From assembly GCF_001677475.2 (NCBI RefSeq), contig NZ_CP015229.1: DNA of 64,000 nt; one strand, given 5' to 3'. Every line of letters begins with the position of its first letter. Within the stretch, counting starts at the first letter, position 1. Positions 40,583 through 45,530 of this stretch are shown piece after piece. Below the pieces are notes generated by a model that was not told the DNA's origin, ran no database searches, and saw only the letters and a program-made list of their open reading frames with translations. The DNA comes from Escherichia coli (GTDB taxonomy: Bacteria > Pseudomonadota > Gammaproteobacteria > Enterobacterales > Enterobacteriaceae). The translations under genes were made by a program, and so were the position numbers.

Positions 40583-43255
40583 TTAAGCGATGGTACGTTG
40601 GATTTCGATGATTTCGAATACTTCGATCACATCGCCAGTGCGGACGTCGTTGTAGTTCTTAACGCCGATACCACATTCCATACCGTTACGGACTTCGTTA
40701 ACGTCATCTTTGAAGCGGCGCAGGGACTCCAGCTCGCCTTCGTAGATAACCACGTTGTCGCGCAGAACGCGGATCGGGTTGTGACGTTTAACCACACCTT
40801 CGGTAACCATACAACCTGCGATGGCACCAAATTTCGGTGATTTGAATACGTCACGAACTTCCGCCAGACCGATAATCTGTTGTTTCAGTTCCGGAGACAG
40901 CATACCGCTCATTGCCGCTTTCACTTCGTCGATCAGGTTATAGATGACGGAGTAGTAACGCAGATCCAGGCTTTCCGCTTCAATCACTTTACGTGCAGAG
41001 GCATCAGCACGTACGTTGAAGCCAACCAGGATGGCGTTGGACGCCGCAGCCAGGGTAGCGTCGGTTTCGGTGATACCACCTACGCCAGAACCGATGATCT
41101 TCACTTTAACTTCGTCAGTAGACAGTTTCAGCAAGGAGTCGGAGATAGCTTCCACAGAACCCTGTACGTCTGCCTTCAGGACGATATTCACTTCGTGAAC
41201 TTCGCCTTCGGTCATGTTGGCGAACATGTTCTCGAGTTTAGATTTCTGCTGACGCGCCAGTTTAACTTCGCGGAATTTACCCTGACGATAGAGTGCAACT
41301 TCACGCGCTTTCTTCTCGTCACGTACAACGGTAACTTCATCACCCGCAGCCGGAACGCCGGACAGGCCGAGGATTTCCACCGGAATGGACGGACCCGCTT
41401 CCAGCACTTCCTGACCCAGTTCGTTACGCATCGCACGAACACGACCGTATTCGAAGCCACACAGAACGATATCGCCCTTGTGCAGAGTACCTTCACGTAC
41501 CAGAACGGTAGCAACCGGACCACGACCTTTATCGAGGAAGGATTCGATAACCGCACCGCTCGCCATGCCTTTACGTACCGCTTTCAGTTCCAGAACTTCC
41601 GCCTGCAGCAGGATAGCGTCCAGCAGCTCATCGATACCAGTACCCGCTTTCGCAGACACATGTACGAACTGGCTTTCACCGCCCCACTCTTCCGGCAGGA
41701 TGCCGTACTGGGAGAGTTCGTTCTTAACGCGATCCGGATCGGCTTCTGGTTTATCGATCTTGTTCACTGCAACGACCACCGGAACCTGCGCCGCTTTCGC
41801 GTGCTGGATTGCTTCGATGGTCTGCGGCATTACGCCGTCGTCGGCAGCAACAACCAGGACTACGATGTCCGTTGCCTGCGCACCACGAGCACGCATTGAA
41901 GTAAACGCGGCGTGCCCCGGGGTGTCCAGGAAGGTGATCATGCCGTTTTCAGTTTCAACGTGGTATGCACCAATGTGCTGGGTAATGCCGCCCGCTTCGC
42001 CAGAGGCCACTTTCGTTGAACGAATGTAGTCCAGCAGAGAGGTTTTACCGTGGTCAACGTGACCCATGATGGTCACAACCGGCGCGCGCGGTTCAGCCGC
42101 TGCCCCCGTGTCACGGTCGCTCATTACCGCTTCTTCCAGCTCGTTTTCACGACGCAGGATAACTTTGTGGCCCATCTCTTCAGCAACCAGCTGTGCGGTT
42201 TCCTGATCGATAACCTGGTTGATGGTTGCCATTGCGCCCAGTTTCATCATCGCTTTGATGACCTGAGAGCCTTTAACAGCCATCTTGTTCGCCAGTTCGC
42301 CAACGGTGATGGTTTCGCCGATCACAACGTCACGGTTAACGGCCTGAGCAGGCTTCTGGAAGCCTTGCTGCAGCGAAGAACCTTTACGTTTTCCGCCTTT
42401 ACCGCCACGTACTGCTGCGCGTGCTTCTTCACGATCAGCTTTTGATTCAGCGTGTTTGTTGCCTTTCTTCGGACGCGCAGCTTTCGCGTTACGACCACGG
42501 CCACGGCCGCCTTCGACTTCACGATCGCTTTCGTCTTCTGCCTGGCGAGCATGTTGAGAAGTAGTGACGTGATAATCGCTGGAATCTTCAGTCGGTTCCG
42601 CGTTATCAGTCCATTTGTTTTCTTCCGCCATACGACGTGCTTCTTCAGCAACGCGACGTGCTTCTTCTTCGAGTTTACGACGCGCTTCTTCTTCGGCTTT
42701 ACGCTTGAGCTCTGCAGCTTCCTGCTCACGGCGGGCTTTTTCAGCCTGGGCGTTTTTAGTCATATCGTCTTGTTGATTGCTCACTTTGTCTTTTTCCGCA
42801 GCTTCACGTTTCGCTTGTTCAGCAGCTTCACGCTTAGCTTGTTCTGCGGCCTCACGTTCAGCTTTTTGTTGCGCCTCGCGTTTAGCCGATTCTTCTGCCT
42901 CACGACGGGCTTGCTCTTCCGCTTCACGCTGCGCTTGCTCTTCCGCTGCAAGGCGTTCAGCCTCTTGCGGATCGCGTTTCACAAAGGTGCGTTTCTTGCG
43001 GACTTCGATTTGTACCGATTTGCTTTTTCCACCGGTACCAGGAATGTTAAGGGTGCTGCGTGTTTTACGTTGCAGCGTCAATTTGTCCGGGCCTGAATTT
43101 TTCTGATTCAGGTGGTCAATCAAAGTCTGTTTCTCTTGTGCGGACACAGAGTCGTCAGCAGACTTCCGGATACCTGCATCAGCAAATTGCTGTACCAGGC
43201 GTTCCACGGAGGTCTGTCGCTCTGCGGCCAGCGTTTTAATCGTTACATCTGTCAT
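40583..43255 (-). CDS. infB: Translation initiation factor IF-2, 890 aa
   Basis: 890 aa; Glu/Ala/Arg/Lys-rich N-terminal region; GTPase G-motifs (GHVDHGKT); in-frame internal GTG (codon 158) and ATG (codon 165). Confidence 0.97.
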
Positions 43256-43279: not shown

Positions 43280-44767
<1,488 letters not shown>

Positions 44768-44794: not shown

Positions 44795-45247
44795 TTAAAA
44801 GTGGGGAACCAGGTTCGCCTTCTGGATATTACTCAGCGCGAACACTTCATCTTTACCTTCGACGGTAACTGTGATCATTTCACCGTCTACCGCTTTGATA
44901 ACGCCCTGCCATTTGCGACGGTTTTGTACCGCCATACGGAGAACCAAAGTCACCTCTTCTCCGACAAAACGGGCGTAGTGTTCAGCCGTGAACAGTGGGC
45001 GATCGAGACCCGGTGAGGAGACTTCCAGGTTATAAGCAACGGTGATGGGATCTTCAACATCCAGCACAGCACTTACCTGGTGGCTCACATCAGCACAATC
45101 ATCAACATTGATGCCATCTTCACTATCAATATAGATGCGCAGTGTGGATGTGCGACCGCGAATAAATTCGATGCCAACCAGTTCAAAACCCAGGGCCTCA
45201 ACTGGCGCAGTAATCATCTCTGTTAATTTTTGCTCTAATGTGGACAA
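44795..45247 (-). CDS. rimP: Ribosome maturation factor RimP, about 150 aa
   Basis: Conserved protein begins ...[24 protein letters not shown]; no in-frame ATG, candidate TTG/GTG starts at 45259, 45253 and 45247; I take 45247. Confidence 0.85.
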
Positions 45248-45263
45248 GCCCACCCCCAAGACA

Positions 45264-45284
45264 TAAAAAAAGGGCCTAAAGCCC
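45264..45284 (-). terminator. Hairpin and T-run directly upstream of rimP
   Basis: Minus strand: gggctttaggccc followed by ttttttt. Confidence 0.55.
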
Positions 45285-45305
45285 AGTTATTCTGTAGTCA
45301 GATAA

Positions 45306-45328
45306 CAAAAAACCCCGATAAATCGGGG
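45306..45328 (-). terminator. Intrinsic terminator downstream of metY
   Basis: Minus strand: ccccgatttatcgggg followed by ttttttg. Confidence 0.65.
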
Positions 45329-45453
45329 CTTTATATAACTGAACCCTATAACCGCAACTGCGGTCTGGAGCACTTTCCAGAAGGATTTTTTCAAATCCCA
45401 CTACGAAGGCCGAAGTCTTCACAGTATATTTGAAAAAGGACTCTAAGGGAAAG

Positions 45454-45530
<77 letters not shown>

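Follow-up and report, generated by a model that had tools for sequence, protein, structure and literature searches.

The leader of the Escherichia coli metY-rimP-nusA-infB operon contains two transcription terminators, t1 and t2, which go back to Ishii et al. (1984) and Regnier and Grunberg-Manago (1989) and are summarized in Brandi et al. (2019; PMC6511841). The latter study lays out the promoters P-1, P0 and P2, the terminators t1 and t2 upstream of rimP, the RNase III sites and the control of the operon by NusA, together with the internal promoters P3 and P4, which supply nusA and infB and bypass both terminators. Processing, by RNase III among others, releases the 3' end of the metY tRNA. 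Antitermination mediated by Csp proteins has also been proposed for this operon, but Brandi et al. dispute it, since the transcript pattern was unchanged after cold shock, which argues against such antitermination as a major input.

In their comparative work, Naville and Gautheret (2010; PMC2965389) named this region the "rimP-leader" and described an unusual conserved GGGc..gCCC stem, with a second, tandem terminator upstream of it that carries the inverse CCCg..cGGG motif in several Gammaproteobacteria. NusA, or possibly RimP, was proposed by these authors as the feedback factor. In Bacillus subtilis, it is established that NusA autoregulates its synthesis by stimulating a terminator in the leader of its own operon, with negative feedback as the result (reviewed in J Bacteriol 2025; PMC12288461). 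The terminated rimP leader has also been listed as a "required" noncoding element in TraDIS.

Here, we analyzed a 64,000-nt stretch of E. coli DNA (the window), in which a preliminary description made from the letters alone had reported two hairpin/T-run elements on the minus strand between metY and rimP; a terminator consensus scan likewise calls both of them terminator-like. We consider it very likely (probability of about 0.88) that these elements represent t1 and t2, the tandem Rho-independent terminators of the metY-rimP-nusA-infB operon, and together make up the rimP leader attenuator (RF01770). The anatomy of the elements, their family membership and their conservation come from the present analysis, and the in vivo 3' ends, the assignments of t1, t2 and P2, and the NusA autoregulation of the operon are taken from the literature.

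Results

Identity of the locus and layout of the leader

Alignment revealed that the leader is 100% identical to that of K-12 MG1655, and the sole mismatch to MG1655 in the 361 nt around the elements is one base inside the tRNA. Window positions are converted to MG1655 coordinates by adding 3,272,759. The 1.2-kb region is matched at at least 95% identity by 5,420 complete E. coli genomes, in which it is annotated as argG / tRNA-Met / rimP / nusA. At position 46 of metY (window ∼45484, minus strand), the strain carries G, compared to A in K-12 MG1655. Its metY thus encodes a tRNA-fMet1-type sequence rather than the K-12 minor species tRNA-fMet2, and such a metY sequence has been described in the literature for E. 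coli B strains. The features of the locus are as follows, in the direction of transcription.

45454-45530, minus strand: metY, initiator tRNA-Met (CAU), found by ARAGORN, with an Rfam tRNA score of 61 bits and by alignment to MG1655
206 nt, minus strand: the metY-rimP intergenic leader, from the sequence
45414-45455, minus strand: core of promoter P2, with TATACT at 45428-45423 and a start near 45417-45420, located from the literature
45387-45437, minus strand: long hairpin predicted by folding, with an RNase III cut inside it at MG1655 3318176, which is window 45417 (Gordon et al. 2017)
45350-45365, minus strand: small hairpin H0 (GACCGC-AGUU-GCGGUU), detected by covariation, just upstream of the conserved box
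45339-45347, minus strand: conserved box AGGGUUCAG (AGGGUYCAG across Enterobacterales), invariant or nearly so and upper-case in the Rfam consensus
45309-45332, minus strand: t1 stem-loop of 10 bp, AAAGCCCCGA/UCGGGGUUUU, with the 4-nt loop UUUA, from folding; helix 1 of RF01770
45302-45312, minus strand: t1 U-tract, U6-G-UUAU (U6 at 45312-45307), from the sequence; invariant in the Enterobacterales leader alignment
45272-45284, minus strand: t2 stem-loop, GGGCTTTAGGCCC (also written GGGCUUUAGGCCC), with the conserved core GGGC/GCCC, from folding; helix 2 of RF01770
45265-45271, minus strand: t2 U7 tract, from the sequence
45249-45257, minus strand: Shine-Dalgarno (SD) region GGGGGUGGG, a nearly invariant segment of the Enterobacterales leader alignment
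45245-45247, minus strand: TTG start codon of rimP, the RefSeq-annotated start
44795-45247, minus strand: rimP coding sequence, from the ORF list and annotation, with the RefSeq start at 3318006 (window 45247)
43280-44767, minus strand: nusA, downstream of rimP, from the ORF list and annotation
40583-43255, minus strand: infB, downstream of nusA, from the ORF list and annotation

The mechanically called rimP ORF begins at the TTG at 45259 (154 aa), compared to 150 aa from the RefSeq TTG. Many database predictions of RimP (P0002-P0016 and others) are 187 to 209 aa long, so gene callers evidently extend the ORF upstream through the noncoding leader and its terminators.

The published sequences of P-1, P0 and P2 all map upstream of t1. 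The P2 sequence that Brandi et al. (2019) give matches window positions 45414-45455 letter for letter, and the primer of the rimP reporter used by Adams (2021) starts at window position 45417. P2 was not detected in the consensus scan and is thus a weak promoter. Upstream of metY, at 45652-45623 on the minus strand, we observed a perfect 12/12 sigma-70 consensus, TTGACA-18 nt-TATAAT, which is the published P-1 sequence with one base different downstream of the -10 element. The earlier statement that any transcript reaching rimP must read through the second hairpin holds for rimP itself, but nusA and infB can also be reached from P3 and P4.

Anatomy of the two elements

Both elements have the anatomy of an intrinsic terminator, in which a G+C-rich stem-loop runs straight into a U-tract on the transcribed strand. 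Element 1 is located precisely where it had been described, with CCCCGATTTATCGGGG-TTTTTTG at 45328-45306 of the minus strand. It folds with −14.1 kcal/mol (z = −4.2), a stability that none of 200 shuffled sequences reached. The preliminary description had interpreted it as a canonical terminator for metY; canonical it is, but this interpretation is incomplete, since element 1 also lies in the rimP 5' untranslated region (UTR). The t1 stem follows the 3' end of the metY tRNA (45454) at a distance of ∼120 nt. Because P2 is located between metY and t1, both elements belong to the rimP 5' UTR, where they act in series. Moreover, both are downstream of all rimP promoters and are partly read through, as seen from published fractions of 3' ends (R; defined below) of less than 1 and from the expression of the downstream genes, which is the arrangement of an attenuator.

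On the plus strand, what comes after the t1 hairpin is CTTTATATAA and not a T-run, and no convergent gene ends there; we thus rejected a bidirectional terminator. The same strand contains, at 45187-45340, a full-length match to the Salmonella sRNA candidate STnc430 (RF02053), antisense to the leader and to the 5' end of rimP. This match is below threshold (26.6 bits, compared to a gathering score of 47; E = 0.12) and probably due to the shared hairpin.

Element 2 had been placed at 45264-45284 of the minus strand. A hairpin with a T-run is indeed present there, but the end was set one base too far, the T-run stopping at 45265. Its distance of about 17 nt from the rimP start proved correct, with 17 nt between the last T and the TTG at 45247 and with the SD region in this interval. 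The fold of −7.4 kcal/mol (z = −1.3; about −6 to −7 kcal/mol otherwise) was equalled in stability by 23 of 200 shuffled sequences. Taken alone, the t2 hairpin is thus statistically unremarkable and marginal as an intrinsic terminator.

Directly after the t2 U-run, we observed the only small ORF of the leader, of 9 codons (AUG UCU UGG GGG UGG GCU UGU CCA CAU UAG; 45264-45235, minus strand), which overlaps the rimP start in a different frame. It has no SD, is lost in two of the distant loci described below (L085 and L087) and is probably not meaningful. Leader-peptide attenuation through this ORF was rejected, since the ORF lacks an SD, is not conserved and lies downstream of both terminators.

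Match to the rimP leader family

Each of the two motifs with its T-run occurs once in the window, compared to 0.02 and 0.00 expected occurrences. The pair matches the Rfam family RF01770, "Gammaproteobacteria rimP leader," with 102 bits (E = 6e-18; gathering score, 47) over the full model (1-102) at window 45265-45365 of the minus strand, and the two helices annotated in the family are exactly the t1 and t2 hairpins. All features that define membership were found, namely, tandem CCCCG..CGGGG and GGGC..GCCC hairpins, a U-run after each, and a position directly upstream of rimP-nusA-infB. Scores for RF01770 in Yersinia, Xenorhabdus and Edwardsiella were 92 to 102 bits. A chance occurrence was rejected on motif uniqueness, the Rfam score and conservation; these, and not the weak t2 fold, are the evidence that takes the elements beyond chance.

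RNA 3' ends at both U-runs

The preliminary description had named 3'-end mapping as the check and an absence of 3' ends as the adverse outcome; in published TRS/Term-seq data, termini are present at both U-runs. The t1 terminus spans MG1655 3318058-3318068, with the dominant ends at 3318061/62 (window 45302/03) and R = 0.72 to 0.89, and the t2 terminus spans 3318018-3318030, with the dominant end at 3318023 (window 45264) and R = 0.39 to 0.46, where R relates the 3' ends counted within 3 nt of the position to all those counted there and over the following 67 nt, and where an RNA-seq 3' end alone cannot separate termination from processing or from exonuclease arrest at a hairpin. At t2, the dominant end coincides with the end of the U7 tract, 8 nt past the stem. 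These R values indicate that t1 is the principal stop and that t2 is a second and weaker one, in agreement with the strengths of the hairpins. Neither t1 nor t2 has a 3' end in the curated Term-seq lists of Adams (2021).

We assigned the names t1 and t2 to the two hairpins because they are the only terminator-like elements in the interval and because of the 3'-end maps. Attenuation built into the operon leader, as had been suggested, is supported and has been published for this exact locus (Brandi 2019; Naville and Gautheret 2010; RF01770).

Conservation of the leader

A scan of species-representative genomes with RimP yielded 80 Enterobacteriaceae loci, all with 92 to 99% identity; Yersinia, Xenorhabdus, Edwardsiella, a 1.2-Mb genome and seven distant loci (42 to 58% RimP identity) were obtained from contig look-ups. 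The Enterobacterales alignment contained 62 distinct leaders from about 30 genera. In these leaders, the segment that begins at the box AGGGUYCAG and includes both hairpins, the U-runs and the SD is more conserved than the wobble positions of rimP; the two stems and the two U-runs vary little or not at all, and the flanking and upstream leader, including the region of the RNase III hairpin, varies. The box AGGGUUCAG lies outside both terminator hairpins and yet is invariant across Enterobacterales.

At t1, 99.2% of the pairs are kept across the 62 leaders, and variation preserves pairing throughout: six pairs are invariant, and two vary on one side yet stay paired (G.U to A-U or G-C; C-G to U.G). 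The median stability of t1 is −13.6 kcal/mol. The t2 hairpin is weak everywhere (−5.7 to −7.5 kcal/mol), with all four G-C pairs of its core invariant and with a fifth pair (U.G) that is specific to E. coli and not conserved. Since the core pairs never vary, covariation is uninformative for t2. Given the weak fold and the lack of covariation, its role as a terminator therefore rests on the U7 tract, conservation and the published 3' end. At the small hairpin H0, in contrast to its unstructured state in the Rfam consensus, compensatory changes were found in five of six pairs across the 62 leaders, indicating that it is a genuine structure.

Outside Enterobacterales, the leader sequence is not conserved, whereas the terminator anatomy is: one or both element types were found between tRNA-fMet and rimP in all eight distant gammaproteobacterial loci (42 to 66% RimP identity). 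Both the CCCC..GGGG-U-run and the GGGC..GCCC-U-run hairpins are present in four of them (L085, L086, L088 and L089). L087 and L091 have the t2 type only, as the sole terminator-like element of the leader, and L090 and L092 have the t1 type only. A tRNA-fMet gene is located upstream wherever this region is visible, and, in loci with a t2-type element, the U-run ends ∼13 to 21 nt before the called rimP start.

At L089 (∼540-600, plus strand), the t1-type element includes three segments, CCGGGG .. CCCCGG .. CCGGGG-U8, in the textbook 1:2 / 2:3 layout of an anti-terminator and a terminator, and a t2-type GGGUC..GGCCC-U9 hairpin follows ∼90 nt later. The rimP start codon is TTG in the window (45247) and in L085, L087 and L088, and GTG in L089 and L092. 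Non-AUG starts of this kind, for the most part TTG, in E. coli and the majority of the distant loci suggest that weak initiation of translation directly after the second terminator is conserved.

Alternative explanations

In predicted folds, the box AGGGUUCAG can pair with the 5' arm of either t1 or t2, and AGGGUYCAG might thus serve as the anti-terminator of a structural switch, pairing with the t1 5' arm (GGGUU:AGCCC) and later with a region that includes the t2 5' arm (45290-45278). Once t1 has been passed, a helix of 45347-45335 with 45290-45278 would enclose t1 and block the t2 hairpin, so that read-through of t2 would be set by RNA folding or by a box-binding factor. The GGGUU:AGCCC hairpin is predicted with p ∼0.9 in E. 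coli before the t1 3' arm is made, but t1 fully displaces this pairing at equilibrium. In a P2 transcript that ends at the t2 stem, the enclosing helix of 13 to 14 bp is predicted with p > 0.99 and t2 with p ≤ 0.01; the local energy advantage of the helix over t2 is nevertheless only 2 kcal/mol, and the predicted balance flips by species, with P(helix) ranging from 0.001 to 0.99 and t2 winning in Yersinia, Xenorhabdus and L085. A switch would account for a box that is invariant although the neighboring sequence varies, for the U.G to C-G change that preserves pairing of the helix in seven sequences, and for the textbook CCGGGG/CCCCGG/CCGGGG arrangement at the t1 of L089. However, the helix shows no positive covariation in the 62 leaders (its core is always complementary and never varies, with one compensatory cell), its outer and extension pairs are lost in divergent taxa, and beyond Enterobacterales the terminators persist without the box. 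We regard such a switch as conceivable but unlikely, and as at best equally likely its specific form in which the box would be the sensor of two stages, a fold or a factor (NusA, a Csp protein or ProQ) on the box deciding read-through of t2. If true, it would add a mechanistic layer, along with the covarying H0, to the published rimP-leader model.

It is very unlikely, in our judgment, that only t1 terminates and that element 2 is instead a structure adjacent to the ribosome-binding site, such as a 5' stabilizing hairpin, a U-rich landing site for ribosomal protein S1, or an operator for rimP translation or mRNA stability. The hairpin of element 2 is marginal (−6 to −7 kcal/mol; z = −1.3), lies 17 nt from the start codon and directly 5' of the SD, and in an alternative 101-nt fold pairs its 3' arm with GGGC at the start codon; its GGGC/GCCC is, moreover, conserved as sequence, beyond pairing alone, which suggests recognition by a factor. 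Against this stand the significant in vivo 3' terminus at the end of U7 in several datasets, the uninterrupted U-run that is conserved together with the hairpin, the occurrence of a t2-type hairpin and U-run as the only terminator-like leader element in L087 and L091, and the name t2 itself in the literature. A translational role of element 2 may, however, be an added function beside termination. Slightly lower still do we rank the proposal that the main product is a short terminated leader RNA of ∼110 nt, which would begin at P2 or the RNase III site, end at t1 and act in trans as a ProQ-bound sRNA and for which the terminators would exist to define the 3' end. The rimP leader is indeed among the attenuator-derived ProQ-associated RNAs in Salmonella (Smirnov 2017), t1 yields a strong, discrete 3' end, and the core of the leader is more conserved than the rimP wobble positions. 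Yet this conservation is explained equally well by function in cis, distant taxa keep only the terminator anatomy and not the leader sequence, and the literature surveyed reports neither a target nor a phenotype in trans; a leader RNA would in any case be compatible with the attenuator and is no true alternative to it. Rho-dependent rather than intrinsic termination in the leader or early rimP, finally, is highly improbable as the cause of the transcription drop. The region is a "Rho termination region" of Adams (2021), with 3318065 as the best coordinate, a Rho score of 2.97 and p = 1e-38, but this score compares 800-nt windows that include the abundant ends of the tRNA and the leader, so that 3318065 merely marks the last strong upstream 3' end. 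With both sites showing canonical hairpin/U-tract anatomy, and with the rimP 5' UTR+ORF reporter of Adams (2021) falling, not rising, in the rho R66S mutant, we rejected Rho-dependent termination as indirectly supported by the Rho score and contradicted by the reporter.

Discussion

In the tandem-terminator attenuator that we favor, transcripts start upstream of metY, from P-1 or P0, or else from P2, which lies between metY and t1. RNA polymerase would meet t1 first, with its strong hairpin and U6GUUAU, and most transcripts would stop there. Polymerases that read through would reach t2 ∼42 nt later, where a further fraction would stop just before the ribosome-binding site, and only double read-through would give an mRNA that carries the rimP SD and TTG and continues into nusA and infB. 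The t1/t2 pair would thereby set, and probably tune, the output of the operon. From the literature, in which NusA feedback is reported at the level of the operon, we infer that NusA, a stimulator of termination at weak hairpins, is the most likely tuning input at the E. coli t1 and t2, where it would probably raise termination, particularly at t2, and thus exert negative feedback. The weakness of the t2 hairpin in all 62 leaders fits the anatomy of a NusA-stimulated terminator.

The genes behind the attenuator encode RimP (ribosome maturation), NusA (a termination factor) and IF2 (initiation), and by its position before rimP-nusA-infB the attenuator therefore helps to set the level of the core transcription and translation machinery. 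NusA could plausibly regulate its own synthesis at the rimP leader as well. Since t1, t2 and the rimP leader attenuator are already published, our analysis adds no new biology; its value is that of a positive control, in which a known attenuator was correctly recognized from sequence only.

The leader-peptide attenuators of trp, his and pheST likewise have a terminator in the 5' leader with possible alternative pairings, but they contain a leader peptide, whereas the rimP leader is without a conserved one. The B. subtilis NusA attenuator (Mondal et al. 2016, as outlined in the review PMC12288461) is also an intrinsic terminator in the leader of a nusA operon. The GGGc..gCCC-U motif of t2 also appears in the B. 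subtilis ylxS/rimP leader in the alignment of Naville and Gautheret. The B. subtilis system differs in having a single terminator and no upstream tRNA gene, and its dependence on NusA has been demonstrated, while that of the E. coli t1 and t2 is what we infer. Compared to RF01770 (Naville and Gautheret 2010, Genome Biol 11:R97), the terminators described here are without any difference; the consensus of the family leaves H0 (45365-45350) unstructured although it is inside the span of the model, whereas H0 covaries in our alignment. The published t1/t2 pair of the E. coli metY-nusA-infB operon is the same locus with an identical leader, the window strain differing by G46 in metY.
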